Positions 4,480 through 61,869 of a DNA stretch of 64,000 nucleotides are shown piece by piece. Source of the stretch: Candidatus Woesearchaeota archaeon (GTDB taxonomy: Archaea; Nanobdellota; Nanobdellia; Woesearchaeales; UBA10216). The notes beneath the pieces were generated by a model that was not told the DNA's origin, did not search any database, and worked only from the letters and a program-made list of their open reading frames with translations. A program made the position numbers and the translations under genes. Location of the stretch: NCBI GenBank assembly GCA_016180065.1, contig JACPBY010000001.1, positions 100,851 to 164,850 on the forward strand, written 5' to 3'. Each line of letters opens with the position of its first letter. Position 1 is the stretch's first letter.

Positions 4480-7400
4480 CTAAGATGCTGCTGCCAGCTT
4501 CTTCACATTCCCAAGCTCCATTTTCCTCAAGCCGTTAAAGCTGCTTATGTCTTTGGCATCCCAAAGCAGCTTCTGAACTTCAAGGTCTGTCAAGCCGTTT
4601 TCCCTGAAAGACCTTGCAGTGTCGTATGCCAACCCTGCATTTTCCAAAAATTCATCAGCCTTTGCGTTAAAGATATCATCCTCATCCTGCTCGCTCAATG
4701 CGCCGCTCACTTCGATGTTTGAAGCCATTGGGGCAACTACGCTGCCAAGCCACTCCTGCCTCTCTGTGCTGAAGCCCTCAATGTTAAGGGCGTTAAGGCT
4801 TCCAAGCGCAAACTTCTCAATGCTGGCAACCGGAAATACGGCAGTGCAACCGCGGGAAACATGGTCATCTATCGTGGCTTCAACAAGGACATCGTAGTAC
4901 GAGCACAAGGCCACCTTGCCGTCAGGAACGCTGAACTGCTCAGGGTCCAGCACAGGATTTCCGAGGTCATGGTCGTAGCCGTTCTGGAACATGACAAAGG
5001 CAAGCTCCTCTGAACCGTCATCATTAACAGCAACCACTGGCACAGCAACCTTAATCTCTTCTGATGCCATGAAGTCCTCTGCAGACTGAATGTATGCCTT
5101 TGAAGTGTCAAAGCTGGCTACTGCTGCCGGTGGCAGGTACATCGCAAGCATAGCCCTGAACTGAGGCTCAAGCGCCTTGTTTTTCACGACCTTTGCAAAA
5201 GGAACGGCGTAGTCAACTGCGAATGTATGTGCAGCGCTGACGGCAGTTCCTGCCCCTTCTGCCAGAGGCCTCAAGGCAGCGTAAGCAGTATCAGCAGCCC
5301 TGGCCTTAAGCACAACAAGCTGGTTAAAGAATGAGGGGAAATGCTCGGGCACAAGGGAAACCGAGCCTGTTTCCCTGCCTAGGACAGCAACAAGCCTGCC
5401 TCCCTTGTCATATATTTTTTCTCCCGGGGTTATCAGATTCTTTATGCCTGCTATCTCTGCAACAAGCTCCTTTAGCTCTTTTTCAACATCAGCCCCGCCA
5501 CTTATTCCCTCCCCAAGGCGCTTCTGAAGCACCCTGCGCTTCTTGAACAGCTCTGCAAGGCCCTGCTTTTTCAGCTCATAAGCCTTCACCATCCTTGCGG
5601 AAGCAGGGTCAATGCCTGAGTTAAGCACCCTCACGGCATCTGCATCCTCTGTTATGCCATAAGCCTTTTTGAGATAAACATCAATGAACTTTTTTCGCAG
5701 GTTAGAGTTTGCTTTTCCTCCCTTGGCCAGCAGCTCGCCAATCTCACCAGCCGTAAACTCTTCCCGCTGCACGAGCTTGAGGACATTCTTTATGCTCACT
5801 TTGTCATTGAGAAGCTCAGGAAAGCTATCCATAACTGCCTGATACCTCTCAGCCAGCCTTGGGCCAACATTATCAATGCTGCCAATGGTTGCCCTGAACT
5901 GGTAAGTAACCATGTTCCCATCCCTGGCAAGGGCTACGAGATAAGGCCTTTCATTCTTTCCAGTTGTAAGGATGAACTCAGCCGCAAGCTTCTTCAGCTT
6001 CATGGCCTCCTCCATTGACTTTGCAGCCTCCTCAAAAGCTTCAGGCGAAGCCTTTGCAATCATAACCTGCTTTGCAAGCCTCGGGTTGGTTATGCCGTGC
6101 TCAGGCCCCAGCCAGCCGTTCACAGCCTTTATGACTGCAGGGTCGTCATCGGCAAGCCTGGCAGGATTTTTCAAAACCTTCAGCACCTCATCCTTATTCA
6201 GGCCGCCCTGCAGGAGCTTCAGTGCCATCTCCTGATTCTTGGGCTTTGCAAATACAAAAGGATGCTGCGCAACGAGAGTAGTGTAGGCTTCCTTCACTTC
6301 CTTCACCAGGTCATCATACCTTGCTGGGTTGTTTGCGAGCGAGTTTTCAAACGTCTTCAGGAACCTGACTCTGAGCGTTTTCCCTGTTGCAAGCTCTGCT
6401 GTTTCAAAGCTTTCAAACCCCGCCTTAACCCTGCGCGCCTTCAGCACCCTGATGGGCTGTGCCGCAATTTCGCGCAGAACATTCACAGCTTCTTTTGTCA
6501 ATCCGGTTGCGGATTTACCAAACTCCCTTGCAAGGATTGCCGCATTTTCCCTTGTTATCACAGCCCTGGACTGCGAGGCAGCCTTAACCACGAGTTCCTG
6601 TGACAACGAGCCGGTTTTCCCGGCAAGTTTGACCATCTGCCTGCTCTTCGCAACAAAGCCTGCAGCAGATGCCTTGCCAACGCTCATGAGCGCTTTTGGG
6701 CCGCCAAACATGTAAAACGTAGGGTCACCGAATATGTCTATGGCCATGCCCTTTGACAGCACCAGAGCCCGGTGGCCAAACGATTTCAGGTTGGCAACCT
6801 TGCTTCGGGCATCAACTGCATAGTCTGACTCGGGGAAATAATCAACAACAACATTGTACATCTCAATCGCCATGCCGTCATCGCCAAGCCCCTTAAAGAA
6901 CCCTGCAACCTCATAGTAAATGTCATCAAGGACATCATACTGCCTATCATCGTCTTTCCCTGAAAAGTCGTCGTACTTTGCAATAGCAAGAACAAGCGGT
7001 GTGTTGCTTTGGGCTATGGCATTCTCATCAGCCCACTTTTGCTCTGATACAAACAGCCCCATGCTGGCAGAATAGCCGCCTACCGCGTCAAAATCCTTCA
7101 CAGCCTGGTCTCTTACAGCCTTGTCCTTGCTGCTCATGGCAACTTCCAGCTTTGCCCGGTAAGCCATAAACTGCTTGCCTATGCTGTCATATTTCTCGTT
7201 AAGGTAATAATCCTTGGCCTTGCTCAACCTTAACTCGTTCATCGTGCCAACAACAGAAACAAGGGGCGTGCCCTGCTCAGCGTCAGCCATCAGCTTTTCT
7301 ATCAGGTTGAGCTTGCTTTCCCGGGTCTGAAGCTTTGAGCCTTCAATAAACATCTTTACCGGGTTAATAAGGTCAAAAACAAAGAAGAAACCCCCCATCG

Positions 7401-10400
7401 TGTTTGCCTCTATGTTCTGGTTCATCACCCCTGTTATTACAGAAAGGACAGCGATTGCCTTCTGGTTAACTTCCTGCACAGAATGCGGCTCGCAGCACAC
7501 CTTGCCAACAGGCATTGTTACCCCATAGCCTGCTTTTTCTGCCGGGCAGGCATAAGGCGCAACAGAGCCGCCAGCAGCCCTGCACTCAACATCATACTCG
7601 CACGAATAAATGCAGGGGCTTTTAGTGAACTCCGGTTTGCCATAGTCAACAATCCCGCCGCAAAGGAACGACGACAGCTTTCTGGCTTCTTCTTTCTCTG
7701 CAACTATTGCTGTTGTAGTTCCATCGCTGTTGCATTCAAACACAACCTCCTCGCTGGCCTTGCCAAGGCATCCTACCCATTGCGCCCCAACCTGCATTCT
7801 TTCCCTGCAGTCAGATGAGGCAGCTGGAGTAAAGGAAGGCAAATCCAAAGGCCTGCCGGTAACGTCCACTGCAGAAATTTTTATCGGCTTCGGGGAAGGC
7901 TCAAAAAACAGGTTGTTCCACTCGCGCCTGCAGGTGTTGCCCAGCCAGTCGCACGGCAGGATGCTCCACTCTGTTGAATCAGCCTGCTGCATCCTCAGCC
8001 ACCTTAACGGCTGGGTTGAAGTGATATCAATCACAAGCTTAAACAGCTCTCCAGGCAAAGGCTTCTCAGGAATTGTTTTTGGCTCATCGCCGGTATAATG
8101 GGTTTCGGGCATAATAGGCTGGATGTTTGCTGCCCTGCCGGTTATTTTAACCCAGCCGCGATTTTTCAGGTTGTTTGCAAGGTTCTTCCTGGCCTTGCAG
8201 GTGTCGCCGGTGTCGGGCTTGCAGCTTTCTATTGAAAGGAAGCCTTTCTGCTGTTCTTCGCCAGGATACTGCTTTTTTATGGCAGCCTCATAAAGGGCAT
8301 GGACTGCCTCGGGCCTGCAGCCTTTGCCATCTTTGTAGAGCCTGTCAAAGTCACAGTCGAACAATGCCTTTATTTCCGGGTTGCTGTTATAGATGCCTTT
8401 CGCAACGTCATTCTTCCTGATGAACTGGCGCTTCTTTCCAACAACGTTGCAGCCGTCCTGCATCTTGAACAGTGAGTTTTTCCCGCAGCTTGTGGCATCA
8501 GAATCGTAAAGCTCTATGTAGCGGTCATCGTAAAGGTTTACCGTTGCCGGGGATGGGCCTGAGGCCAGCTCATACTTTATGCTGTCCAAAGCCTTAAGCG
8601 TGAACCTGTGCGAGCCGTCATACGTGCTGTCAAACGGGCCTATCCTGATTTTCTCGTAAACATTACCGCCGGTTGGCGCAACAGAAACAGGCAGCACGTT
8701 CACGAACTGGTCTTCCCTGTCCTGCGCATACCTCCTGTGCTCGTGCTTTATCTCAAAGCTTTTGATGCTTTCAACAGGGCCGCTCAGCACCCAGCTTGCG
8801 CTTATCGTGCCGTCAGGGTTTGGAACAAGCCTGAAATCCTGCACCCTGACTTCAGAAGGCGCCAGGATTATTGGAGTATTAGCACTAGCTTCCTGCCAGC
8901 CTTTTTTGTTAAGCTCTTCAGTCAGCACACGCCTCGCAGAGCAGACTTTGCGCACATCACCTTCAAATCCCGCCTTTCCCAGCTTTAACGCGCTGTCAAG
9001 GTCGCAGTTAGAGCCAGTAACCTTATCATAACTGGCAGAGAAAAACTTCCCCATCAGCTTCTCATACATCAGATTAACAGCTTCAGGAACCTTGCAGTTG
9101 TCCATGCCACTGCCTTTTTCGTAAACGCAGCCAAGCTCATCAAACTTTGCCTTTATGCCGCCATAAATCTCCTCAGCAGATGGCGAAACTTTTTTGATTA
9201 ATGCCTTCTTATTCCCGATAACATCACAGTTTGCTATGCACCAGTAAGATTCAGTATATTGAGTCTTGGGTGGCTGCTGGTAATATTCAATGAACCTTTG
9301 GTTGTAAAGCCCAACGCCTGCCTTTACCTCGTTTGACTTGAAGTTACTGTCTGCATTGCTTGTTGCGGATATCGTGAACTCATGCCAGCCCAGCTGATTC
9401 TCCCTGGGAACTGCATGGGAGAAGGAGCGGGTTGCAGGGCCCTTTTCCAGGCGCTCAGGGGATGATGTTACAGACTTGATTTCATTGCCTTCCTTGTAAA
9501 TAAGCCTTGTAACAACATGATTTATCTCAAAGCCCTTCACGTTGTTTTTGCCGACAGGAACAGACCAGCTCACGGCCATTACGCCATTCTCGTCGCTCTT
9601 CACGGCTGCGCTGTCAAGGTTTGGCTCCCTGTTGTCGAGGTAGCTTGCTATAACCCTGCCGTATTTCTCATTCCTGTCCCCTGCGGAACCAGAGATGGCC
9701 ATCTGCTTCCATCCCAGCTTATCCCGCAGATGCTTTTCCAGGCTGTTGGAGCACTGCGCAAAATCATTTTTTACGTCTGCCTTCACGCTGTCAACAGTCC
9801 ATTTCTTGTTGTCCCACAGCTTTTCAGCAGCGTTCATGAACTCTGTCAGCGCATCGACCTTGGCTTCCTCACAAACCCTTCGGTAGAAGTCAAATGCTGC
9901 CGCCTTCTGGTAAACATCATTGATCTGGGCTGCTGTGCACCCGTTGAAAGTAATAGGCCCAATGCTTCCGTATGCCTGCATTTGCGAAGGGGCAGGGTAG
10001 TCGCAGCACTGGCCGCCATCGCACGTCCTGCCAACCTTACCGCCGTTTTTATTGACAAGCTCATTGTAAATAATCATCACGCCTTCCCTGCACTTTTCCG
10101 GAATGTTGCTCCCAAGTTTCGCTATCAGCTTTGCCCGCTTGCACTCAATCACGTCACAATCGCTGCAGCCACTAACAGGATTGTCAAAGAGCTCAAGATA
10201 GCTTTCGTCGTAGAAGCCAAGCTCAAACCTCTTCACGTCCTTTGTGCTCCCGTCCTTTTTGAGGACAGCAACGAACGTGTACCAGCCCGGCTTGAACTTC
10301 CCGCTGAGCGTGGAAACGCCGCCCATGGCCTGGCTGACTGTTCCACCGCAATCAGCTTCATCAGCAGGGCACTTTACATTAAACTTCTTTTCCAGCTTCC

Positions 10401-10752
10401 CCCCGTTTTTACCTTCGCTTGTGTAAACAAGGTTTTGTTTTTGTTCAGTATTAGGCGGATCCGGCGCCCTGAAATTACCGCTGCCCTCTGCTTTTTCCGT
10501 GTAGCTACTGTGAATCTCAAGGACTGCATTATCCTTGTTTCCGCCAAGCGTTGCAGCAAAGGCAAGGTTGCCGTCTTCGGCTGGCACTGCAGAGAAAGAG
10601 CCTATTTTTGGCTTTCCCCACCCAAGGTCAAAATTGTCAGTTACGGCTTCCATGGCATGAGCGATGGGCCCGCCAGCTACCTTGAGGGCTATGAAAGCCA
10701 CAATCATCATGATTACAGCGCCCTTAAGGTCCATCCAGGGCATTTCAGCCAA
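4480..10752 (-). CDS. giant (2,090 aa) prepilin-like surface protein with three tandem about 250-300-aa repeats and a long helical C-terminal half
   Basis: Uninterrupted 6.3-kb ORF with N-terminus MAEMPWMDLKGAVIMMIVAFIALKV. The repeat markers are FYDESYLELFD..CSDCDVIECK, LYNQRFIEYY..CIANCDVIGNK and LYDDRYIELYD..DGCNVVGKK. Each repeat ends with L..(K/R).GW. Confidence 0.8.
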   Translation of the reverse strand: MAEMPWMDLKGAVIMMIVAFIALKVAGGPIAHAMEAVTDNFDLGWGKPKIGSFSAVPAEDGNLAFAATLGGNKDNAVLEIHSSYTEKAEGSGNFRAPDPPNTEQKQNLVYTSEGKNGGKLEKKFNVKCPADEADCGGTVSQAMGGVSTLSGKFKPGWYTFVAVLKKDGSTKDVKRFELGFYDESYLELFDNPVSGCSDCDVIECKRAKLIAKLGSNIPEKCREGVMIIYNELVNKNGGKVGRTCDGGQCCDYPAPSQMQAYGSIGPITFNGCTAAQINDVYQKAAAFDFYRRVCEEAKVDALTEFMNAAEKLWDNKKWTVDSVKADVKNDFAQCSNSLEKHLRDKLGWKQMAISGSAGDRNEKYGRVIASYLDNREPNLDSAAVKSDENGVMAVSWSVPVGKNNVKGFEINHVVTRLIYKEGNEIKSVTSSPERLEKGPATRSFSHAVPRENQLGWHEFTISATSNADSNFKSNEVKAGVGLYNQRFIEYYQQPPKTQYTESYWCIANCDVIGNKKALIKKVSPSAEEIYGGIKAKFDELGCVYEKGSGMDNCKVPEAVNLMYEKLMGKFFSASYDKVTGSNCDLDSALKLGKAGFEGDVRKVCSARRVLTEELNKKGWQEASANTPIILAPSEVRVQDFRLVPNPDGTISASWVLSGPVESIKSFEIKHEHRRYAQDREDQFVNVLPVSVAPTGGNVYEKIRIGPFDSTYDGSHRFTLKALDSIKYELASGPSPATVNLYDDRYIELYDSDATSCGKNSLFKMQDGCNVVGKKRQFIRKNDVAKGIYNSNPEIKALFDCDFDRLYKDGKGCRPEAVHALYEAAIKKQYPGEEQQKGFLSIESCKPDTGDTCKARKNLANNLKNRGWVKITGRAANIQPIMPETHYTGDEPKTIPEKPLPGELFKLVIDITSTQPLRWLRMQQADSTEWSILPCDWLGNTCRREWNNLFFEPSPKPIKISAVDVTGRPLDLPSFTPAASSDCRERMQVGAQWVGCLGKASEEVVFECNSDGTTTAIVAEKEEARKLSSFLCGGIVDYGKPEFTKSPCIYSCEYDVECRAAGGSVAPYACPAEKAGYGVTMPVGKVCCEPHSVQEVNQKAIAVLSVITGVMNQNIEANTMGGFFFVFDLINPVKMFIEGSKLQTRESKLNLIEKLMADAEQGTPLVSVVGTMNELRLSKAKDYYLNEKYDSIGKQFMAYRAKLEVAMSSKDKAVRDQAVKDFDAVGGYSASMGLFVSEQKWADENAIAQSNTPLVLAIAKYDDFSGKDDDRQYDVLDDIYYEVAGFFKGLGDDGMAIEMYNVVVDYFPESDYAVDARSKVANLKSFGHRALVLSKGMAIDIFGDPTFYMFGGPKALMSVGKASAAGFVAKSRQMVKLAGKTGSLSQELVVKAASQSRAVITRENAAILAREFGKSATGLTKEAVNVLREIAAQPIRVLKARRVKAGFESFETAELATGKTLRVRFLKTFENSLANNPARYDDLVKEVKEAYTTLVAQHPFVFAKPKNQEMALKLLQGGLNKDEVLKVLKNPARLADDDPAVIKAVNGWLGPEHGITNPRLAKQVMIAKASPEAFEEAAKSMEEAMKLKKLAAEFILTTGKNERPYLVALARDGNMVTYQFRATIGSIDNVGPRLAERYQAVMDSFPELLNDKVSIKNVLKLVQREEFTAGEIGELLAKGGKANSNLRKKFIDVYLKKAYGITEDADAVRVLNSGIDPASARMVKAYELKKQGLAELFKKRRVLQKRLGEGISGGADVEKELKELVAEIAGIKNLITPGEKIYDKGGRLVAVLGRETGSVSLVPEHFPSFFNQLVVLKARAADTAYAALRPLAEGAGTAVSAAHTFAVDYAVPFAKVVKNKALEPQFRAMLAMYLPPAAVASFDTSKAYIQSAEDFMASEEIKVAVPVVAVNDDGSEELAFVMFQNGYDHDLGNPVLDPEQFSVPDGKVALCSYYDVLVEATIDDHVSRGCTAVFPVASIEKFALGSLNALNIEGFSTERQEWLGSVVAPMASNIEVSGALSEQDEDDIFNAKADEFLENAGLAYDTARSFRENGLTDLEVQKLLWDAKDISSFNGLRKMELGNVKKLAAAS

Positions 10753-19652: not shown

Positions 19653-20153
19653 ATGAGCACCCCAACCAAGGCAACAACAGATGCGGCAGCATTTAACTAC
19701 CTGAAGGAATGGGCTACAACATACTCCCGGCACAGGGATATCCCCCTTAAAAAAATCAGGGATATAAAAGACACGCAGAATGGCTTCCAAATCATCAATA
19801 AAGACGGCACATCAGCGGACTGTGTAATCCTTCCTTCCCTCAAAAATGCGCTCCACCCGGCTGAAACCCGTGGGCAGCGGGTTATAGTGACGCTGAGCAA
19901 CATCGAGAACATTAAAGAAGTATGCAAGGCATGGGATGCCATGGCAGCAGACAGAACACTGCTCATCATTTTTGCCAACCCCCTGTCAGAAGCAGAGGAT
20001 AGGTGGGTGCTGAAGCCGCACCTCCACAACAAGGTGTGCGACACAGCATCCCTCACGCAGGGGCTTAAGGCCATGTCGGAGTTTGTTGAGCCAATCGATG
20101 AGGAAACGCTTACGCTCAGGATAGGGGCAATCAGGGCTGCTGAAGTGCAATAA
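19653..20153 (+). CDS. hypothetical protein (166 aa)
   Basis: Clean ORF with an upstream TATA-like box. I recognise no motif. Confidence 0.55.
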   Translation: MSTPTKATTDAAAFNYLKEWATTYSRHRDIPLKKIRDIKDTQNGFQIINKDGTSADCVILPSLKNALHPAETRGQRVIVTLSNIENIKEVCKAWDAMAADRTLLIIFANPLSEAEDRWVLKPHLHNKVCDTASLTQGLKAMSEFVEPIDEETLTLRIGAIRAAEVQ

Positions 20154-20198
20154 AAATATATAGCTGGGTTTGATAATTTGCAATTATGCGTGTAAAAT

Positions 20199-20361
20199 CT
20201 GATTTTCCACCAATCTCTGATTGGTGGTATCTGTTTGTGGAAAATCAGGCTCTGAGCAAACCGACCCGAGCGAAGCGAGCATGCAAATCGGCAGCAGCCG
20301 ATTGCACATTCCGCAATGCGGAATTGCGCCACCGGTCTTTGACCGGTGGTGGTCGGTTTGC
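20199..20361 (+). other. cluster of strong hairpins: a 12-bp stem-loop followed by a 106-nt four-helix element
   Basis: ctgattttccac (20199-20210) pairs with gtggaaaatcag (20237-20248). gcaaaccgacc (20256-20266) pairs with ggtcggtttgc (20351-20361) and encloses three hairpins. The strand is not determined. Confidence 0.4.
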
Positions 20362-22057
20362 GATTGACAAAGCGTGTAACAAAAATTTTTCTCCTGTTTC
20401 CCCCGCATCCTTAGCTGCAGCAGTTTTCCTGGCGCTTCTTTTTTTAGCAACCGCTTCACTGCCCGTTCTTGCAGACCAGGCAATATTCGACGGCACTGTG
20501 GTTTCAGGCCGTCAATACAACACCAGCACAGGCCAGGCGTTCACAGCAACATATGTGCAGTCAGAAGCCAAGCTGCTGGTTGAGTTCCCGAGCGAGGCGC
20601 TCGTAATAAAAAACCAGAGCTGCACCATGGGAAAAAGCCTGAAAGGATGCCTGAGCGAGATAAAGTTCAAAGGCTACAATTATTCCCTGCCTGACAAGGA
20701 AGTTTACGACGTCCGCCTGACTCTGAGCTTATTTGTGCCTGAGATTGAAATTGCAAAATACGTGGAGAAGCCAACGATTGATGTTGGCGAGGAAACCACG
20801 GTGTATGTCAACATAACAAACACAGGAAGCGCAGCAGCCACGGTCCATTTCACGGAGAACGTGTCTTCAGGCCTTAAAGCCATTGAGATGCCAGGCCAAC
20901 GCTGCCAGCTTTCCGCGGGCAATACCCTTGTGCTTACCACCGACTTGACTGTAAAAGAGCAGAGGCAGTGTAACTATCTTGTTTCAGCCCTCGAGCCGGG
21001 CACTTACTCCCTGAAATCCACAGCAGCATTCGCTGCGGTTACTCCAAGAGAAACGGCGGCATCTGCGGCAATAAGCGTAAATGCCCTGCCGATGCTCATG
21101 AATGCAACATACCTGCAAAACATTCCCCTTGGTGAAAAAGTAAACCTAACCTTCACGCTAAAATCCGGCGAAAAGATAGACGCACTCTCTTTCGCGGCAT
21201 TTATCCCGAACCCGCTCAAAATTACATCATTCGGTGGGATTGCAGAGCAGGAAAAACAGCCCGGCGGGTCAAAATTAAAATACGGCAACAGGTTCACAAG
21301 CCTGAACGGAAGCATTGACCTGCCATTCACATCAGAAGCAGTAAGCGTTGGAGAATTCTACATAAATGCCGATGCAAGCTGGCTGCTTGGAGAGCTGAAG
21401 CAAAAAGCAAGCCTTGCTTTTCCCGTAAACATAACACTAACAAAGCCTTACCTCAGGGCGGGCAGGTATGATAACCAAACAGGACTGTTAGATGTGGACA
21501 TCGTGAACCCGTCGCACCTTCCGCTCTACAATGTTTCCGTGGCCTTAAACAGCTTTGGAAACGCTACCGGAAAGCCAATCAATGTTGAAGTAATAAGCAG
21601 CCTGAGCCATGCAAGCTTTGAAGCAGCACTGGCAACAGCAGGAAACACATCTTACAATGGCTCAATACGCTACTACACGCCATACAGGCAGGAACTCACC
21701 GCAACCGCAACGCTGCCAATAAACGCCTCGCAGGCAATCCGGAAGGAAGAAGAGCCAGCAAAGCCAGCCCAGCCAACTGCCGAAGCACCTCACATAAACA
21801 CTCAGCCTTTACCGACCTCTTCAGAAAGCGAACCAGCAGCATCTGAACAGCAGAACATCTACGAGCAACCACAAAGAAAAAGCACAGCATCTTCCCAGAT
21901 AAAGCTGGCTGCCGTGATAGCAGGGGCAATAGTGCTCCTGATTATGGCTTTCGCGCTCATAAAGTCAAGGGGCAAAGGCGGCACCGGTCACGAAGGGGCA
22001 CAGGAAGAGCCAACAGGCGCTGAAAGCGAAACAGAAAACACTTATGGCCCAGCATGA
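20339..22057 (+). CDS. surface protein with repeated beta-sandwich (CARDB/DUF11-like) domains, an N-terminal signal peptide and a C-terminal TM anchor
   Basis: The signal-like stretch is SLAAAVFLALLFLATASLPVLADQ. A typical domain motif is VGEETTVYVNITNTGSAAATVHF. The C-terminal anchor is LAAVIAGAIVLLIMAFALIKSRGKGG. The track start at 20186 would translate through the hairpin cluster, so I use the in-frame TTG at 20339. The start remains uncertain. Confidence 0.7.
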   Translation: MTGGGRFAIDKACNKNFSPVSPASLAAAVFLALLFLATASLPVLADQAIFDGTVVSGRQYNTSTGQAFTATYVQSEAKLLVEFPSEALVIKNQSCTMGKSLKGCLSEIKFKGYNYSLPDKEVYDVRLTLSLFVPEIEIAKYVEKPTIDVGEETTVYVNITNTGSAAATVHFTENVSSGLKAIEMPGQRCQLSAGNTLVLTTDLTVKEQRQCNYLVSALEPGTYSLKSTAAFAAVTPRETAASAAISVNALPMLMNATYLQNIPLGEKVNLTFTLKSGEKIDALSFAAFIPNPLKITSFGGIAEQEKQPGGSKLKYGNRFTSLNGSIDLPFTSEAVSVGEFYINADASWLLGELKQKASLAFPVNITLTKPYLRAGRYDNQTGLLDVDIVNPSHLPLYNVSVALNSFGNATGKPINVEVISSLSHASFEAALATAGNTSYNGSIRYYTPYRQELTATATLPINASQAIRKEEEPAKPAQPTAEAPHINTQPLPTSSESEPAASEQQNIYEQPQRKSTASSQIKLAAVIAGAIVLLIMAFALIKSRGKGGTGHEGAQEEPTGAESETENTYGPA

Positions 22058-31819: not shown

Positions 31820-31965
31820 AAACCTTTTTGCTCGCTAAACCTTTTTTGCTGCGGCAAAAAAGCTTTACCAAAAGCTATACATCCTGTCATGGACAAGATT
31901 AGGCTTTCCGTCAACGCACAAGTCGGCAGTTGCCGGCTGTGCACAATCGGCGCAATGCCGATTCG
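31820..31965. repeat. copy of the hairpin-module family (A/T hairpin plus AATCGGC..GCCGATT hairpin)
   Basis: cttttttgc (31841-49) pairs with gcaaaaaag (31854-62). aatcggc (31945-51) pairs with gccgatt (31957-63). The 12-mer gcaaaaaagctt is identical, as its reverse complement, to 52594-52605. Confidence 0.5.
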
Positions 31966-32095
31966 GGCTTTTGCGAACATCAGTGAACAAAAGGGTTGTG
32001 CTATATTAGTATATAAAAGCATAATCTTTATATAGTGGTATTTGAGTTTTAGCACAGTTATTGGGGTTGGTTGGTGAGAGAAGGGGGTTGCATAG

Positions 32096-32518
32096 ATGGT
32101 AATACTTTTTGACCAGTTCCACATGCCGGATGACATCTTTGAGGTAGTCTTTGCCACAACCCAGCAGAAGATAGTTGCCAAGGTTCTCATAAGAACCATG
32201 AAGGAAAAGAACGGTGAGATGAACAAGACAGAGATGTCTTTCTTTGCAACAAAGCTTCACGAAGGCAATTTCGTGACCGAGATAGAAGAGCCGGGCTACG
32301 AGGGCAAAAAAGTAAAGCTTTCATACAACAAAAGGCAGTTTTATGACCGCATTCTGACTCCCATGAAAAGCATGGGCATGATTGACTACGACCTTTACAA
32401 GAAAACCTACCGGCTTTCTGATGCTTTCAACAAGGAGATGATCAAGGTAGGCATCATGTGGCTGCATGAGCTGAAAAGGCCTGTTTCCGGGTTCAAGATA
32501 AAGGAAGCAAAGGCGTAG
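32096..32518 (+). CDS. hypothetical protein (140 aa)
   Basis: Clean ORF with a purine-rich stretch (gagagaaggggg) upstream. I recognise no family. Confidence 0.5.
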   Translation: MVILFDQFHMPDDIFEVVFATTQQKIVAKVLIRTMKEKNGEMNKTEMSFFATKLHEGNFVTEIEEPGYEGKKVKLSYNKRQFYDRILTPMKSMGMIDYDLYKKTYRLSDAFNKEMIKVGIMWLHELKRPVSGFKIKEAKA

Positions 32519-51195: not shown

Positions 51196-51381
51196 AGGGG
51201 CTGTAGTGCAACTTGGCCAACACACAGCGTTCGGGTGCAACCTTTTTGTTCGTTGCGACTCACAAAAACAAGCTCGAGCCAAGCTCGAGATGCACCCCGC
51301 CCAAAAGGCGGGTGTGGCTTGACCAAAAAGCGAAAAGGGCAGAAAAACGCTGTAGTCTGGGTTCGAATCCCAGCAGCCCCG
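51196..51381 (+). tRNA. tRNA-Pro(CGG) with a 112-nt intron after position 37 (51235-51346)
   Basis: Folded by hand. The acceptor GGGGCTG pairs with CAGCCCC. The D-arm is GTGC-AACTTGGCCA-ACAC. The anticodon stem CAGCG pairs with CGCTG, and the loop is TTCGGG..A. The T-arm is CTGGG-TTCGAAT-CCCAG and the discriminator is G. No CCA is encoded. Confidence 0.85.
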
Positions 51382-51388
51382 TTCTCAA

Positions 51389-52411
51389 TCACGGCACCAG
51401 CACAATCTTCCCAAAGGACTGCCTTGACAGCAGGCGTTCCTGGGCTTTTCTCGCGTCCTTAAGCCTGAAGGCAGAGTCCAGCACAGGCCTGAGCTTGTTG
51501 TCAGCAGCCAGCTTCGTCACTGTCATGAAATCCTTCATGGTCCCGGAAACAGAGCCAAGGATTGAGCGCTGCGCCATGAAAAGCTCCCTGATGTTAATTG
51601 TGGCTTCATTGCCAGAAGTAACGCCGCAGGTAACAAGCCTGCCGTTCCTGGCAAGGCACTTGACGCTTTTTGCAAAAGTGGCAGCCCCAACAGGATCAAT
51701 AACCACGTCAACGCCCTTATTCTTCGTTGCTGCCAATACCTCATCAATCCAATCCTCTTCCGAGTAATTTATGACAACATCAGCACCTATTCTCTGAGCC
51801 TTCCGGAGCTTCTCCTCGCTCGAGGAAGTGGCAATGACCTTTGCTCCAAGAAGCTCTGCAATCTGGATTGAAGCTACACCGACGCCAGAGCCAGCACCTA
51901 AAACAAGGACCGTCTCGTTCGGCTGGGCCTTTGCACGGTCAACAAGCATGTGGTAAGCTGTTGTAAACGTCAAAGGGAGTGCCGCAGCCTCTTCAAACTT
52001 AAGGTTTTCCGGCATCCTCATGAGGTTCTTTATCGGAACAGTGACATATTCTGCGTAGGTGCCGTCAACCTGGGCTCCTAAAGTCCTGTAAGTGGCGCAG
52101 AGATTGTGGCTGCCCTCAATGCAGAACCTGCAGTGAAAGCAGGCAACCGTAGGGTATATGATTACCTTTCTTCCCACAAAGGAAGCATCACCAGCATTAA
52201 CATCCTCAACAACACCAGCAGCATCAGCCCCCGGAATGTGGGGCAGGCTTGGCTTGTAATAATTTCCCTTCTCAACCCAGATGTCAATGCGGTTGACAGA
52301 AGCAGCCTTTACCCTCACAAGAGCCTCCCCGAAAGCGGGAACGGGCTTGGAAACATCCTCATAGCAGAGCACTTCAGGGCCGCCGAACTCATGAAACCTT
52401 ACAGCCTTCAT
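51389..52411 (-). CDS. zinc-type alcohol dehydrogenase / quinone oxidoreductase (MDR superfamily)
   Basis: It contains MKAVRFHEFGGPEVLCYEDV and GAGSGVGVASIQIAELLGAKVIATS. The track ORF extends to 52522 over a hairpin module, so I use the ATG at 52411. Confidence 0.85.
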   Translation of the reverse strand: MKAVRFHEFGGPEVLCYEDVSKPVPAFGEALVRVKAASVNRIDIWVEKGNYYKPSLPHIPGADAAGVVEDVNAGDASFVGRKVIIYPTVACFHCRFCIEGSHNLCATYRTLGAQVDGTYAEYVTVPIKNLMRMPENLKFEEAAALPLTFTTAYHMLVDRAKAQPNETVLVLGAGSGVGVASIQIAELLGAKVIATSSSEEKLRKAQRIGADVVINYSEEDWIDEVLAATKNKGVDVVIDPVGAATFAKSVKCLARNGRLVTCGVTSGNEATINIRELFMAQRSILGSVSGTMKDFMTVTKLAADNKLRPVLDSAFRLKDARKAQERLLSRQSFGKIVLVP

Positions 52412-52431
52412 GGTTTCCCTGGCGGCAGCTT

Positions 52432-52481
52432 CAAATCGGGATGCGCCCGATTGCACATTCGGCCCCTCGCCGAATTGTGCC
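52432..52481. repeat. two-hairpin module, homolog of 20284-20330
   Basis: The sequence is caaatcggg-atgcg-cccgattg followed by cacattcggc-ccctc-gccgaattgtgc. The long identical blocks shared with 20284-20330 are interrupted only by compensatory stem swaps and differing loops. Confidence 0.55.
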
Positions 52482-52582
52482 TGCTGTTCCGGCCTGCCCT
52501 GCCCAAGAAGTTTCTCTTCCATGGCAAAAGGTAATGCAGGTTTGTTTTTATATTTTAGCTAACGGAGAAGTTTGATATTTTC

Positions 52583-52626
52583 GGCTTTTGACCAAGCTTT
52601 TTTGCGCGCTCACCAAAAAGGTTGAA
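52583..52626. repeat. A/T-rich hairpin module abutting the tRNA-Leu 3' end; may also serve as its oligo-T terminator
   Basis: ggcttttgaccaagcttttttgcgcgctcaccaaaaaggttgaa is near-identical, as its reverse complement, to 31838-31875. Confidence 0.5.
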
Positions 52627-52808
52627 TGCGGGAGACGTGATTCGAACACGTGAACCCACTAAGGGACAAGCTTTTTCTCAGCCGTTTTCGCGTTTTTGGA
52701 TTGTGTTTCCGGAGAGGAAACACTCATCGGCCGCTGCCGATGTTGAACCTTTTTCGCAAAAAGGGTCACCTGAAGCTTGCGCGTTTGACCAGGCTTCGCT
52801 ACCCCCGC
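52627..52808 (-). tRNA. tRNA-Leu(CAG) with a 96-nt intron after position 37 (52673-52768)
   Basis: Folded by hand on the minus strand. The acceptor GCGGGGG pairs with CTCCCGC (one G-U pair). The D-loop has A14, G18G19 and A21. The anticodon stem CAAGC pairs with GCTTG, and the loop is TTCAGG..A. The long variable arm is TCCCTTAGTGGGTTC. The T-arm is ACGTG-TTCGAAT-CACGT and the discriminator is A. Confidence 0.85.
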
Positions 52809-52827
52809 AATAAGGGAGCTTTACGCT

Positions 52828-52920
52828 CCCTTATCAACCCTTATTACGGATTGACAAAGCAAGCAGAAGAGCCCTTATCAACCCTACGGAACGATACGAG
52901 CTCGCTGCCCTTATCAAGCC
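52828..52920. repeat. three 13-bp direct repeats CCCTTATCAA(C/G)CC upstream of tRNA-Leu
   Basis: The copies are at 52828-40, 52872-84 and 52908-20. The first overlaps the hairpin aataagggag/ctcccttat (52809-34). Confidence 0.6.
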
Positions 52921-57330: not shown

Positions 57331-60300
57331 TTAATGCGGAATCTTTGGCAACTTGAGCGGAGGCAGCTTCCTGTGCGTGAAATGCATGATTTCAACAGCT
57401 GCCAGAACCAGCGCAGTAAGCACAACCACAGTCCACACCACCTTTGCCGCAAACCCAAGCCCGCCTTTTTCAGCTTCAGATGGCCTTGCTTCTTCAGGCT
57501 GGGGCTGTTGCAGCTGCTGCACAACCTCAACCTGCTGTTCCTGCCCTTTGGCCGCTTCCTCACCGGATGGCAGCGCCTTCACGGCAAGCTTGGCTTTTGC
57601 CTTCTCAGCAACTACTGAAAAGACTGAAAAGCCCGGGGTTGTTGCCTCATAGCTTATGAAATCCGCGTCTTCTGAAATTTGTTTAGTCGGAAGCCTTACC
57701 CACTCATTGGAAACAAGCCTGTTCAGCGAGGTTGTGGCAGGGTCAAGGCTGTTGTTGCCAAACCAGCCTGTTGGAACTCTAAACTTAATCGTAGCGGTTG
57801 TTACAGCTTCCAGCTTGGCCTTTGTTATTGACAGGTACTTGTAAACGTTGCCAGCGCCTTTTGATACAGGAGGGGAAATGCTTGAAGCGAGTGTTGTTTC
57901 CCTCACGCTGACCGCGGGGCTGGATGAGGCTGTTCCAGCGACTGCGACTATCTCATAAACGGCAAGGTCGGCGAACTTCTTGTATGAGAAGGTTCCCGCA
58001 TCGCCTGCGTTCAGGTCTTTCTGGAGCAGGAAGTTCTCTGAAGCAAGCGCAGCCCCGCCTCCGCCTCCCCCTCCTCCGCCACCTCCGCCTCCACTGCTGC
58101 TGCTTGAAGCGCTGCTGCCTGAGCTGCTCCCGTAAGTCTTCGTGCCCTGCACGCCATAGTAGGAGAAGCCAAGGCCTGCGCCTATAGCCATGGTGCAGTT
58201 GGTGACAGACGCGCCGAAGGTGCAGCTTGCGTTGCTGGTGACATCAAAGCAGTTTGACAGGTTATCATCGCTGCACTTCCAAAGCTTGGTGCCGTTGTCA
58301 GGTATTGTTATGGTTATGTACTTAACTCCGAGCTTTTGAATGATTGTGTTCCAGCTTGTTGTGTTTATGCCGACAAACTTGTTTGTTGAGTTTGAAGAGT
58401 AAAGCGTGGTTATGTTTATGGTTGCGGCAGCGAAGACTGACACGTTTTTCAGGGTGATGTTGTAACCGTTGTTCGGGTCCTTGATGGTTATGTCAATATT
58501 CTGGGCGTTGGAGGCGTTGACCTGCTTGCCGTAAGTCATGTTATCGCCAGAAACTCCCAGCTGCGGAATGTCAATCTGCAGCCCGGAAGAAGGGACCGGC
58601 TTGAAGACATAAGACTTGTAGCTAGTATCTGTCGTGAAGTTCGTGCACCCGCTCAACAAGCAGTTCCCACACAAGTCGCACAGCTTGTACTTGTAATAAT
58701 ATGTGCGGTTGCTGCCAAGGGTGGCATTAACGCTGTACTTGTCAATCAATGCTTCATGCCACGACTTAAACTCGTTCCCGGTAATTGAGTCAGTCAACCC
58801 AAAGTCCTTGATAGTTGAGTTAAGCGTTGAGCACTTGGTGTCATTGCCATAGAAAACCACTGTGCCGTTGCTTGGCTCGTCAGAGTCAAAAGAGATTGAC
58901 GCCCCTTCAGGGAACGTTGCAGCCTCAAGCCACTTCAGGCCCGGCGGGCTTTTGTCATTGGGGTCGCAGGTCATTCCAAAGCCGCAGCCAGCGAACGGGT
59001 CATACTTACAGCTGTTGTCATTACAGTCAACCATGCCATTGTTGTCATTATCCTTGCCGTCGGTGCACAGCGGGCCACCTTCAAAAGGCACAAAGCCAAA
59101 CTTCTTGAACAGGGTGCAGTCCGGGTCGTTGTCAGCCGTCAAGCCGTCGCCATCAGCATCCTGCCCGGTTGCCATGCAGTTTTCAAACTTCTTGTCAATG
59201 CTTCCGGGCGCATAATAGTAAGGCCCGCCTATGTCAACAGGGTTGGTTTCATTTGCACCAGCGCCAGCGTCATTCAAAATTGTCAGGTTATTGCTGCTGT
59301 TGGCAGTCATCATGAAAATCCTGATAACACCTTTCGGGCTGCCAAAATCAGCCTTCTTGATGACCATTATCTGCACCCCTCCCGGCAGGCCCCCGCCGCT
59401 TCCTCCTTCACCAGGGCCGCCGGGCCCTCCCTGCCCTTCCTGGCCTCCTGGACCGCCTATGGTCATCTTGCACATGTCTTTCATCACAGCCAATTGGGCT
59501 GAGAACGGCACCCAGCTGCCCGAAACGCACCTGAAGCCAACCTTGAATTCGCCGCTTGTAGTGTTCTCGGTGTAGAAAAACTTGTAGTCAAAGCCGTACT
59601 CCCTGAACTGGGCGCCCAGAGGCAGAGTGCCATTAACAGCACAGCCTGTGCTTGCATTGTTGTCAGAATCAATGAAGCGGTAAAACTTTGCAGTAAGGTT
59701 CCTTGTTATTGCCTTGTAAGCTGAGACCTTGTTGCAGCCTGCGAAATTTGAAAGGTTCTTGACTGCCATGCCAATGTCAATCTTGTCCTGCGCTCCAGGG
59801 CTTTCATGGACACCCACATCAGTGATGTCAGTCCAGTTCTGGCCCGATGTGTTGTCATCCTGCGGGTCAAACCCTATCAGCTCAGGAGGGGAGTCAACCA
59901 GCATCCCGCCTGCAAGGTTCTTCTCAAATACGGGGTTGCACCAGCCGGTTGCTGCATTGTAATAGCAGACAGCGGTTGCTCCCAACGGGCCTATTCCTGT
60001 CTGGGCTGCGCAGCCGGCAGGATTGTTATCGTTTTGCATGCATGTTGAAGGGCCAATTGCGCCAAGCCCTGCACCGCTGCCTCCTGCGCCTGAACCCATG
60101 CCGTAGCCGCAGAACGGGTCTGACTGGCAGTCGTTAACATCAGCGCAGTCCGAGAGGCTGTCGCCATCCTCATCTCCAGGCAGGAAACAAATCTCCTGGA
60201 CAGTGTTGTTCAAATGGCAGAATGAGGCAAATGAGCTTGTAGTATCCCAGCTGCAGTTTGCAGCGCTCGCAGCGCAGATGTTCTGGCTCTGGCAGGCAGA

Positions 60301-61869
60301 GCACGTCTTTGTGCAGTCCTTCTTATTGGCGAGAAGAAGCTTCTCGCAGGAGCCATCCTCAGAGGCGTTGAAAGTCCCATCGCCGTTTGAGTCAGAGCTG
60401 AAGGAATCGGAAATCCAGGAACAGTTTGCATTGCTAGTCCGGCAGGTGTCGTTTTTGAAGCACCCAATGCAATTTGCGCTGCAGTCAGTAAACCCAAACT
60501 TTATGTAGCTTTCCGGCTCGCACCAGCCCTGCCCGTTCATTGCGTTTGTGTCAGGAATCCACTTACAGAAGCCCAAAGCCGAGTTCTTGCACTGCTGCGC
60601 AGCTGTTTCGTTTGTAGCCCAGGGGCTGCCGTCTGACTGCTTTTCACACGCCCAGCAGGCATCATTGCAGCTTTCCTTGCTGAAATCGCCAAAAGACGGC
60701 TCGCACCACGAATCAGATGCTGTTTGGGTGTTGCTGTACTGGTCAGTGTAGGTGTACTTTTCTGTTTTCCAGGTGCCTCCTGTGGCTGTGCAGGAAGATT
60801 CTGTCTTGATGTCAAAGAAATCCCCACCGCCTCCGGAGCTGCCGAATATGCTGTTAAGGCTGAACTCGCACTTGCTCTTGGCTGCGTTCCAGCTGCACGG
60901 CATGAAATAAGTCCCGCTTGCCACTGTGCAGTTCTGCTGGTTTGCAGCAGCATCGCAGAATGTAAAAGGGGAAACAGGCAGGTTTGCAGAGGTTTTTGTA
61001 ACATTCCCTACGCAAGTGATGTTTGAGGACACCCAAGTGCACAACGGCGAGGTATGGGGCTGGTTGTTGCAAATGGTCTGGTTGACAAAGTTCGGGCACA
61101 CTATGCCTGCAGCATAATCAAAGCCTTCCCTGGAATCGCAGAGGCTCCCAACATCGCTCCACTGGCAAACAGTCACGTTGCCACAGGCGGCCCTGTTGCC
61201 GTCAAAAATCGGGCAGTCCGCTGTTTTGTTCATTGCACCTGTGCCTCCACCGCCGCCAGCCTTTCCTTCCTGGCAACTCTTCGTAAGCTCATCCCAGTGG
61301 CAGGCAGCGCCTGAGTCCACAGCACCCCAGCAGGCAACAGAGTTCTGGTATTGGAAACAGCCCGTGTTTGGAGGCTCGCCCAAAGCCGGACTGCCATTGC
61401 TCTGGAACTTCCAGATGGCTGTTGCGCTGCTGCCTGGCACAACATTGACGAGAACTATCAGCGCATATGTGTTGTTGCCCGTCTTCACGGCAAAGGCATC
61501 ACCAGCACCAAAAACAGAGGCTCCAACATGCTCATAAATAAGCCCCACTCCACCGTAGAACGTGTCAGAGCCATTCGGCACCTTATAAGTGGTAAGGTTG
61601 TTCATGGGCCCCATATTCCTGATTTTGCCAGGGCTCGCATTAAGGAAGCCAAGGCTGGTGCTTGTCATAAACGCGTTAACAGCCACTCCAGACCTCTTGT
61701 CCCACTTGACATGGCCTGAAGAGTTGCTTACCTCGCCGCTTGTAAGGTTGATGTAAGTAGTGTCATTAAGGACAGCTGTGCCGCTCGTAACCACAGCTGC
61801 AACAGGGAAAGAAGATGCCAAAACGCCAAAAAGGACAACGACAGAAATGAACGCAAAAGACTGACGCAT
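57331..61869 (-). CDS. very large Cys-rich, sequon-dense surface (S-layer-like) protein with a PGF-pre-PGF-like domain and a C-terminal TM anchor
   Basis: The signal peptide is MRQSFAFISVVVLFGVLASSFPVAA (ATG at 61869). It has many N-x-S/T sequons, repeated C-x(n)-C-x-W-x(n)-C units, Asp-rich Ca-binding-like motifs, a poly-Gly tract and YEATTPGFSVFSVV. The C-terminus is GLGFAAKVVWTVVVLTALVLAAV. Confidence 0.8.
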   Translation of the reverse strand: MRQSFAFISVVVLFGVLASSFPVAAVVTSGTAVLNDTTYINLTSGEVSNSSGHVKWDKRSGVAVNAFMTSTSLGFLNASPGKIRNMGPMNNLTTYKVPNGSDTFYGGVGLIYEHVGASVFGAGDAFAVKTGNNTYALIVLVNVVPGSSATAIWKFQSNGSPALGEPPNTGCFQYQNSVACWGAVDSGAACHWDELTKSCQEGKAGGGGGTGAMNKTADCPIFDGNRAACGNVTVCQWSDVGSLCDSREGFDYAAGIVCPNFVNQTICNNQPHTSPLCTWVSSNITCVGNVTKTSANLPVSPFTFCDAAANQQNCTVASGTYFMPCSWNAAKSKCEFSLNSIFGSSGGGGDFFDIKTESSCTATGGTWKTEKYTYTDQYSNTQTASDSWCEPSFGDFSKESCNDACWACEKQSDGSPWATNETAAQQCKNSALGFCKWIPDTNAMNGQGWCEPESYIKFGFTDCSANCIGCFKNDTCRTSNANCSWISDSFSSDSNGDGTFNASEDGSCEKLLLANKKDCTKTCSACQSQNICAASAANCSWDTTSSFASFCHLNNTVQEICFLPGDEDGDSLSDCADVNDCQSDPFCGYGMGSGAGGSGAGLGAIGPSTCMQNDNNPAGCAAQTGIGPLGATAVCYYNAATGWCNPVFEKNLAGGMLVDSPPELIGFDPQDDNTSGQNWTDITDVGVHESPGAQDKIDIGMAVKNLSNFAGCNKVSAYKAITRNLTAKFYRFIDSDNNASTGCAVNGTLPLGAQFREYGFDYKFFYTENTTSGEFKVGFRCVSGSWVPFSAQLAVMKDMCKMTIGGPGGQEGQGGPGGPGEGGSGGGLPGGVQIMVIKKADFGSPKGVIRIFMMTANSSNNLTILNDAGAGANETNPVDIGGPYYYAPGSIDKKFENCMATGQDADGDGLTADNDPDCTLFKKFGFVPFEGGPLCTDGKDNDNNGMVDCNDNSCKYDPFAGCGFGMTCDPNDKSPPGLKWLEAATFPEGASISFDSDEPSNGTVVFYGNDTKCSTLNSTIKDFGLTDSITGNEFKSWHEALIDKYSVNATLGSNRTYYYKYKLCDLCGNCLLSGCTNFTTDTSYKSYVFKPVPSSGLQIDIPQLGVSGDNMTYGKQVNASNAQNIDITIKDPNNGYNITLKNVSVFAAATINITTLYSSNSTNKFVGINTTSWNTIIQKLGVKYITITIPDNGTKLWKCSDDNLSNCFDVTSNASCTFGASVTNCTMAIGAGLGFSYYGVQGTKTYGSSSGSSASSSSSGGGGGGGGGGGGGAALASENFLLQKDLNAGDAGTFSYKKFADLAVYEIVAVAGTASSSPAVSVRETTLASSISPPVSKGAGNVYKYLSITKAKLEAVTTATIKFRVPTGWFGNNSLDPATTSLNRLVSNEWVRLPTKQISEDADFISYEATTPGFSVFSVVAEKAKAKLAVKALPSGEEAAKGQEQQVEVVQQLQQPQPEEARPSEAEKGGLGFAAKVVWTVVVLTALVLAAVEIMHFTHRKLPPLKLPKIPH

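Follow-up and report, generated by a model that had tools for sequence, protein, structure and literature searches.

The Rickettsia palindromic elements (RPEs) are palindromic repeats known from non-coding DNA as well as from in-frame positions within unrelated genes of a reduced genome (PMC10969869). The GC clusters of yeast mitochondria measure 26-79 bp (GC42 is 42 nt long), form hairpins, are flanked by AG or ACT repeats, change mainly in their loops and merge or nest within one another, and the enzyme that mobilises them is unknown (PMC4478555). Palindromic DNA inside protein-coding sequence is also described for the palindromic amphipathic repeat coding elements (PARCELs) of Mollicutes and the inverted repeats of Nematomorpha mitochondria (PMC2996958, PMC6649704), and the repetitive hairpin elements of sponges are physically similar to the element studied here (PMC2800124). 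Here, we describe a double-hairpin element of 43-46 bp that occurs three times in a 64,000-nt stretch of Candidatus Woesearchaeota archaeon DNA (contig JACPBY010000001.1, positions 100,851 to 164,850; hereafter, the window). With a probability of roughly 0.85, we regard it as non-autonomous mobile DNA resembling MITEs (miniature transposable elements with inverted repeats), resident in a groundwater clade of Woesearchaeota.

The Woesearchaeota element resembles the RPEs in its in-frame stay in unrelated open reading frames (ORFs), where it is carried as an extra peptide segment, and in its additional presence in non-coding DNA. RPEs are bacterial, approximately 100-150 bp long and encode a conserved peptide in one frame per family, whereas the archaeal element is 43-46 bp long, is flanked by a 2-nt repeat, lies in both orientations and is read in five of the six frames as unrelated peptides; the two share no sequence similarity. 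With the GC clusters and the double-hairpin elements of Allomyces mitochondria, which Paquin and colleagues reportedly found in 2000 to fold into two hairpins, the element shares the form of a very short, dispersed, hairpin-forming repeat. However, those repeats are organellar and mostly intergenic or located in variable regions of rRNA, whereas the present one resides on a cellular archaeal chromosome, often in essential genes, and has no sequence similarity to them. The PARCELs and the Nematomorpha repeats are likewise palindromes in coding sequence that can be read on both strands, but they are longer and kept as coding repeats, whereas here the 43-46-nt DNA is conserved and the peptide varies with the frame. 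In full-text searches, which also returned two 2024 MITE surveys, nothing relevant on elements of this type in DPANN archaea or Woesearchaeota was apparent from titles and abstracts. We place the element among the palindromic mini-elements tolerated in coding sequence, from which its extremely small size, an archaeal host, the reading in five of the six frames and a flank restricted to YG (Y, pyrimidine) set it apart.

A covariance model was built from related copies and run on the window, where it identified the following loci:

20284..20326, plus strand: locus 1, a 43-nt double-hairpin element of subfamily A, loop class (6,3), 64.1 bits, E 5.6e-15; hairpin 1 at 20286-20303, hairpin 2 at 20308-20324, flanks TG (20282-20283) and CG (20327-20328)
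52432..52477, plus strand: locus 2, a 46-nt element, loop class (7,5), 58.9 bits, E 1.3e-13; hairpin 1 at 52434-52452, hairpin 2 at 52457-52475 in the variant ATTCGGC/GCCGAAT, flanks TT (52430-52431) and TG (52478-52479)
31919..31965 (31917-31967 in the model match), minus strand: locus 3, a diverged third copy, 43.8 bits, E 1.3e-9; subfamily-B-like, hairpin 2 AGCCGGC/GCCGACT, linker GTGCAC, a 43-nt core whose length is not a multiple of three (3n), 5' end degenerate

The next match in the window had an E-value of 0.5. Locus 3 was spotted through a census of perfect hairpins, as a copy of hairpin 1 (31945-31963) adjoined by a further hairpin with a GCAC-type linker. Loci 1 and 2 had been described in the initial annotation as a duplicated two-hairpin module at 20284-20330 and 52432-52481. 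Both modules read as quoted there: the identical blocks of 8, 14 and 6 nt are present, and each hairpin differs in a single stem pair, both bases of which have changed (AATCGGC/GCCGATT vs AATCGGG/CCCGATT and ATTCCGC/GCGGAAT vs ATTCGGC/GCCGAAT). As for the element itself, CAAATCGG...GAATTG, it ends somewhat earlier, at 20326 and 52477. The shared 14-mer by itself is not above chance (57 14-mers are repeated in the window), and a search allowing three mismatches gave no more matches than were found in shuffled sequence. A larger recent duplication had been named as a result that would overturn the annotation; the two regions align locally only as far as the borders of the module (score 39), and segmental duplication was rejected, as the likeness stops there.

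The family consensus is YG-CAAATCGG-loop-CCGATTGC(A/G)CATTCCGC-loop-GCGGAATTG-YG, with the two YG outside the element, or, with symbols for flanking bases and slashes at the element borders, x1x2/CA-AATCGG n..n CCGATT-G C y C-ATTCCGC loop GCGGAAT-TG/z2z1. Two adjacent hairpins of 7-8 bp each are linked by G-C-R-C, and either can be extended to ~10 bp with one bulged base, so that subterminal imperfect hairpins stand at both ends, as is typical of insertion sequences (ISs) of the IS200/IS605 type. The ends also form an imperfect terminal inverted repeat of the MITE kind (CAAATCGGC vs the reverse complement of the 3' end, CAATTCCGC, 7/9). Because of these imperfect terminal inverted repeats, each copy also reaches ~38 bits on its reverse strand when the same covariance model is applied, and neither DNA strand folds better than the other (-17.5 kcal/mol each at locus 1). 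The folds are more stable than those of shuffled sequences (z -2.4 to -6.1). The core measures 39 or 42 nt in 46/53 copies, and the loop-length pairs (6,3), (5,4), (7,5) and (8,4) add up to 9 or 12.

Selection for pairing, proposed from the two loci alone, was borne out when covariation was examined across the family. In a set of 44 distinct copies, hairpin 1 has GC as its distal pair in 19, CG in 14, AU in 7 and UG in 2; over the same 44 copies, 93.6% of cells are paired, whereas shuffles reach 88% and sliding of the partner column leaves 19-40%. Loop-adjacent stem positions vary freely provided they pair, and G-T pairs are few and restricted to the top strand. Additionally, the linker base y covaries with the first flanking base (x1-y: UA 28, CG 15, UG 1; y-z2: AU 26, GC 14). 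This linker-flank covariation defines subfamilies A (TG..A..TG) and C (CG..G..CG). Subfamily B has hairpin 2 as AGTCGGC/GCCGACT and includes window locus 3, and subfamily D has CCCA...TGGG. At the gathering scores of its families, Rfam gave no match in the window and none at the modules of 18 related loci, and ARAGORN with default settings reported no tRNA at the modules of the window and of 18-20 related loci.

The scan of genomes and related bins that the initial annotation had called for revealed a family. One genome per species was searched with the pattern AATCGG-N4-10-CCGATTGCACATTC, which returned 34 loci, 22 of them continuing into hairpin 2. These full modules reside in seven Woesearchaeota metagenome-assembled genomes (MAGs; 21 copies) and on a 2.5-kb contig binned as Methanosarcinales (one copy), while 12 bacterial matches have no hairpin 2 and are of the same order in number as estimated chance matches. 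A metagenome scan with a hairpin-2-centred pattern contributed 38 more loci, from groundwater projects, and a scan of viral contigs gave 0 matches. The genome and metagenome scans together yielded 53 unique copies, to which the covariance model adds diverged ones, so the absence of further copies, which would have spoken against the module, can be set aside: more than 50 distinct copies exist in public genomes and metagenomes. Sequence not picked for the module contains ~1 copy per 20 kb (three in the 64-kb window, three in ~55 kb of L075-L078). The family is multi-copy and restricted to a clade of groundwater Woesearchaeota within the DPANN archaea; its members, 43-46 nt long, dispersed over at least seven MAGs and metagenomes and devoid of coding capacity, have the multiplicity expected of a MITE. 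A bacterial tandem repeat in a Solirubrobacterales MAG (L015 900-1010), in which AATCGGCTTTAGCCGATTGCA stands beside GAGAATCGAAGATTCTC hairpins, resembles hairpin 1 only and is probably unrelated to the element.

Insertion is recorded in empty and filled sites with exact borders, in a repeated flanking dinucleotide, in nested copies and in identical elements at different sites of different MAGs. These identical elements, like the identity of the orthologous SufS copies, can be read as signs of recent or ongoing activity. The flanking dinucleotide is the same on both sides at 46/50 sites (TG 30, CG 15, TA 1), which gives a net insertion of 43+2 or 46+2 nt, that is, 45 or 48. The SufS-like cysteine desulfurases of the MAGs JACPBX and JACPTF (P0001 and P0002) carry a 16-aa insert, HNSATSGMCNRTSSDL, between ELKLQ and QLRQ. 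This insert is missing from 12 homologues with 63-84% identity, including those of JACPIJ and JACPIH, whose element copies sit elsewhere, and from the solved Bacillus subtilis SufS structure 5xt5. At the DNA level, the empty site reads AAAGCTGCA/GCAGCTG and keeps one TG. The filled site exceeds it by exactly 48 nt and has at its two borders a repeated GCA (TGC in the element orientation). AlphaFold predicted the insert as a low-confidence coil, from an alignment that was too shallow (mean pLDDT, the predicted local distance difference test score, 55).

A second empty site was found at locus 1 itself. The exact product of the gene upstream of locus 1 is also encoded on Logan contigs of the same species (L079-L082); three Logan contigs end inside a 21-nt palindrome at 20207-20227. 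In the strain variant L082, gcgagcaTG is followed directly by ccgctggtctctgaccagcgg (gcgagcaTG/ccgctggtc), and the 45-nt insertion is missing. MAFFT placed the gap at the contig end; the manual register gives 17/21 identities for the next hairpin. The insertion polymorphism that the initial annotation had suggested looking for is therefore present both in SufS and at locus 1, and these two empty sites, together with the 46/50 identical flanks, have the form of a target-site duplication.

The element also inserts into hairpins. At L026, it sits in the loop of a hairpin upstream of tRNA-Leu, and the same loop is intact in the window (52810-52834). Nested copies are seen where L062, GGGAAA-CG[...]CG-CCCG, corresponds to GGGAAACGCCCG in L025, and L059 is related likewise to L024. 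The reconstructed empty sites have the loose consensus GCAG-N-YG-CC, and 31% of them fall in the loop of a stem of at least 5 bp, compared with 6.5% of control YGC sites in Woesearchaeota sequence (p 1.3e-7); many of these target loops belong to related elements. L059 (an Lhr-type helicase), L060 and L073 (an epimerase) hold two to three elements of different subfamilies nested inside genes, and such nested elements add ~30-45 residues in frame, for example, KNPSRQRSQVGSSRLRSPAGAGLATGPSRKSGEARLRIPPTAELRSSDLG in the Lhr-type helicase.

Copies of the element are unusually free of stop codons. The mean number of stop-free frames per copy is 5.48 of 6, compared with 3.2 in shuffles and 3.6 in random window segments, and all six frames are open in 24/44 copies compared with ~2.5% of random segments (binomial p ~4e-27). 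Wherever at least 60 open codons lie on each side of a copy, that copy is 3n; together, these copies use five frames on both strands, with the following hosts assigned by Pfam:

Same strand, QIG... frame: RNase_H_2 exonuclease and RtcA
Same strand, RKSG... frame: Lhr helicase and GDP-mannose-dehydratase-type epimerase
Opposite strand, HNSA... frame: SufS and OGG
Opposite strand, TIP... frame: Trm1
Opposite strand, QFR... frame: GatA

In-frame residence was also found in Rrp4, and the seven copies that are not 3n all lie where no convincing gene spans them. The contrast between 3n length and coding context is not significant by itself, because 87% of all copies are 3n. Since the same DNA is read in five frames, a conserved peptide motif was rejected, in agreement with the earlier view that the conserved unit is nucleic acid rather than protein. 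Copies can survive inside essential genes because an insertion, being 3n and nearly stop-free, would add only a loop of 15-16 residues.

Paired and covarying stems could also belong to a structured cis-regulatory RNA or a small RNA gene, kept for its two hairpins and acting on neighbouring genes. The covariation, the folds that are more stable than shuffles (z -2.4 to -6.1), the few G-T pairs on the top strand only and the location of loci 1 and 2 in the 5' parts of transcription units are consistent with such a role, and the initial annotation had implied a functional RNA or cruciform tied to the neighbouring genes. That part of it did not hold. Copies lie in both orientations relative to their hosts, amid unrelated enzymes and housekeeping genes, beside tRNAs and inside one another; they are present or absent among strains; the two strands fold equally well; Rfam recognises none of them; and locus 3 lies upstream of both divergent promoters. 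We give very little credence to the RNA explanation, and the pairing is better explained as a need of the mobile element itself. A mobile mini-intron, cut from mRNA or tRNA precursors by the archaeal splicing endonuclease, would leave host proteins unaffected. DPANN archaea have broad-specificity splicing endonucleases, long tRNA introns are plentiful in these genomes, and copies stand beside or inside tRNA-associated sequence. However, a strict bulge-helix-bulge motif (two 3-nt bulges and a 4-bp helix) was found at the junctions in 0/102 strand-sites. Relaxed matches are scattered, and the 12 that share one register stem from the palindromic GCGC of C-type copies and have no second outer helix. 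Moreover, the exon flanks are unrelated, an intron would need neither 3n length nor six stop-free frames, and both orientations occur, which an RNA-level signal could not tolerate; splicing is accordingly a highly improbable explanation.

The half-sites AATCGG/CCGATT and ATTCCGC/GCGGAAT are palindromic, as would be expected of protein-binding DNA sites kept by the host for a genome-wide function, either operators or sites like the repetitive extragenic palindromic (REP) sequences for nucleoid, gyrase or segregation proteins. The window copies near promoters and the orthologous SufS copy, which is more conserved than its flanks, agree with this possibility, but many copies are situated well within coding sequence, and some within one another, and the insertion polymorphism between strains speaks against sites kept by the host. 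The loop-adjacent stem positions are free as long as they pair, which fits folding rather than the reading of half-sites in duplex DNA, and we hold binding sites of this kind to be very unlikely. Chance resemblance, or an assembly or sequencing artefact, might be suspected from the shared 14-mer, which alone does not exceed chance, and from the breakage of short-read contigs at these palindromes. This suspicion can practically be dismissed: different studies and sources provide over 50 copies in assemblies made independently, with in-frame positions in conserved genes, and the model E-values reach 1e-13 to 1e-16.

For the mobile element, insertion would place it at a Y-G dinucleotide, which would then stand on both sides, for a gain of 45 or 48 bp. 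An insertion into a gene would add a loop of 15-16 residues, and copies would persist in essential genes, leaders, tRNA flanks and the loops of other elements. Because the element has no coding capacity, it would be moved in trans by an enzyme encoded elsewhere, which presumably recognises the hairpins. Three kinds of enzyme are compatible with the junctions. A DDE transposase might make a 2-bp staggered cut. A recombinase with a 2-bp crossover core (IS607-like) might act through a circle, whose junction, GGAATTG-YG-CAAATCGG, would have imperfect dyad symmetry about the core. An HUH enzyme (IS200/IS605-like) might act on single-stranded DNA; cleavage would then take place at the left-flank YG and the right-end YG, paired with the internal C-R, the enzyme would recognise the hairpins by way of their stems with one extrahelical base, and single-stranded hairpin loops would be the targets. 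The covariation of y with the flanks and the preference for loops favour the HUH model among the three. Descent can explain this covariation as well, since two large subfamilies supply most of it, and the pattern can equally be read as a 2-bp duplication combined with subfamily descent. When flank pairing was compared with duplication, TG/TG fitted better as a direct repeat, CG and TA were uninformative owing to their self-complementarity, and the diverged subfamily D looked paired.

Like MITEs, the element is short, non-autonomous and multi-copy, is polymorphic for presence or absence, and has a duplication at its flanks and terminal inverted repeats that are imperfect. Typical prokaryotic MITEs are several-fold larger, and a further difference lies in the duplicated dinucleotide, whose restriction to YG and covariation with an internal base are left unexplained by an ordinary staggered cut. 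With the IS200/IS605-derived palindrome-associated transposable elements (PATEs) and the REP sequences of REP-associated tyrosine transposases (RAYTs), it shares imperfect hairpins with an extrahelical base and insertion that favours hairpin loops; moreover, its left-flank dinucleotide equals its right-end dinucleotide and is complementary to an internal C-R, a possible "guide"; these are parallels to IS608. Unlike the element, REPs carry a conserved GTAG and have been described in bacteria. A bolder version, which we regard as speculative and unlikely, is a new minimal mobile unit that chooses its target by base pairing: the central C-R would pair alternately with the left-flank and right-end Y-G, insertion would proceed into single-stranded hairpin loops, and the mover would be either a replication or repair enzyme of the host or one so far not associated with any IS family. 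In this version, the element would still be active in DPANN archaea and would remodel the loops of essential proteins.

Several observations weigh against the mobile-element explanation. No autonomous parent IS with the same ends, 60-4000 bp apart, was found in ~0.5 Mb of related loci, where only composite or nested elements appeared, as a further difference from MITEs; the same ~0.5 Mb contained no head-to-tail copies or circle-junction-like sequences. Domains of a transposase, an integrase or TnpB were absent from the 49/51 window ORFs scanned with Pfam, and the available sequence yielded no mobilising enzyme, a Y1 (HUH) transposase included. Instead of a true target-site duplication, the flanking YG could be a crossover core that belongs to the element. 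The orthologous copies in SufS match at 50/50 positions (L022 2611-2660 vs L033 7078-7127; JACPBX and JACPTF), whereas the 300-nt flanks on each side are 78-81% identical; the chance of 50/50 matches at 80% identity is ~1e-5, and simple vertical descent does not explain such identity. It suggests a hot spot that received parallel insertions, a very strong constraint or gene conversion among copies. The 3n rule derives for the most part from a few abundant subfamilies and has modest statistical weight, and translation through the element is predicted from open frames.

The window genes are archaeal housekeeping genes (ATP-dependent DNA ligase, Nop56/58, fibrillarin, PCNA, RFC, XPD, beta-CASP RNase and aminoacyl-tRNA synthetases), and the proteins nearest to their products come from groundwater MAGs labelled "Candidatus Woesearchaeota archaeon". 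Two ORFs carry loci 1 and 2:

20186..22057, plus strand: DUF11 surface-protein ORF that carries locus 1 in frame (CKSAAADCTFRNAELR); its ATG stands ~28 nt after a TATA box at 20153-20164
51389..52522, minus strand: Zn-dependent dehydrogenase gene, with a conserved core from the ATG at 52411, a 37-aa N-terminal extension from the ATG at 52522 and a TATA box at ~52545-52556

Loci 1 and 2 had been placed upstream of these two genes. Both loci in fact lie within ORFs that start at ATGs ~28 nt past TATA boxes, and their position may be better described as inside a poorly conserved N-terminal extension. At locus 1, the DUF11 frame has no stop in the element or in the 21-nt palindromes on its two sides and continues into the surface protein, and the two indels relative to L082 (45 and 6 nt) are both 3n. 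As far as can be judged from the sequence, this hints at translation through the region, and the start codon of the DUF11 gene is uncertain. Locus 2 lies antisense and in frame within the 37-residue N-terminal extension of the dehydrogenase ORF. The promoter, GCTAAAATATAAAAA...CATTACCTTT...ATGGAA, is common to the window and the orthologous JACPIJ locus, and most orthologues have a variable N-terminal extension of 13-31 residues before MKA(V/M)RF, usually ME or MD followed by acidic or Lys residues. Most likely, locus 2 is a 16-residue addition to the disordered N-terminal tail of the dehydrogenase; if translation begins at 52411, it lies in a long leader instead. Locus 3 is intergenic, between a DHH-family gene (minus strand) and the ORF at 32096 (plus strand), upstream of both divergent TATA boxes. 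We infer that the copies at the three loci are passengers, two of which probably add 15-16 residues to N-terminal extensions.

The dehydrogenase gene is bracketed by two intron-containing tRNA genes. tRNA-Leu(CAG) at 52626-52809 (minus strand) has an 85-nt intron holding three hairpins (52703-52764); it was missed by Rfam and default ARAGORN and recovered by ARAGORN with introns allowed. The other, at 51197-51381 (plus strand), has an intron of ~111 nt and was called Phe(AAA) by ARAGORN, but Pro(CGG) is more likely because the anticodon loop reads TTCGGGT. Three direct repeats, CCCTTATCAA(C/G)CC, stand at 52828, 52872 and 52909, upstream of the tRNA-Leu gene, and the first of them overlaps the hairpin ATAAGGGAGC tttac GCTCCCTTAT at 52810-52834. 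In JACPBX (L078 3770-3960), the tRNA-Leu beside the orthologous dehydrogenase is enlarged by an extra insertion in its D-loop region, and its 3' part seems to run into the N-terminal extension of the dehydrogenase; this oddity reflects a local rearrangement or an assembly problem. The window also contains two very large ORFs on the minus strand, at 4483-10743 (2087 codons, no Pfam match at E 1e-5) and at 57334-61869 (1512 codons, outside the Pfam scan).

The palindromes on both sides of locus 1 belong to a separate family of 21-nt single-hairpin mini-elements, CCACCNNNC-NNN-GNNNGGTGG, all 3n; four were found, compared with ~0.02 expected by chance in the sequence searched:

20207..20227: mini-element CCACCAATC tct GATTGGTGG, a single hairpin of 21 nt
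20329..20349: mini-element CCACCGGTC ttt GACCGGTGG, a single hairpin of 21 nt that directly abuts locus 1
L037 2404 and L071 30: further copies

The counterpart of the 20329 mini-element in L082 is CCGCTGGTC tct GACCAGCGG, in which two compensatory pairs differ. Another stem, GC gaa GC in the window, reads GCCCC gaa GGGGC in L082 and is longer there by 3+3 nt. Short-read contigs among L079-L082 end within palindromes just past the gene encoding 166 aa, and the mini-elements thus fragment assemblies.

If the double-hairpin element is mobile, an active selfish element exists even in the small, gene-dense genomes of episymbiotic DPANN archaea, and the lack of free space would have been solved by compatibility with translation, through 3n length and the absence of stops in all six frames. 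It would be an archaeal counterpart of the RPEs and the mitochondrial GC clusters, whose movement is unsolved, and its clean empty and filled sites could make that question testable. Such palindromic repeats break short-read assemblies, and their insertions can mislead start-codon calls and alignments. The insertions can also serve as strain-level markers, and nested ones, such as the ~45 extra residues in the Lhr helicase, would be a source of new protein loops.

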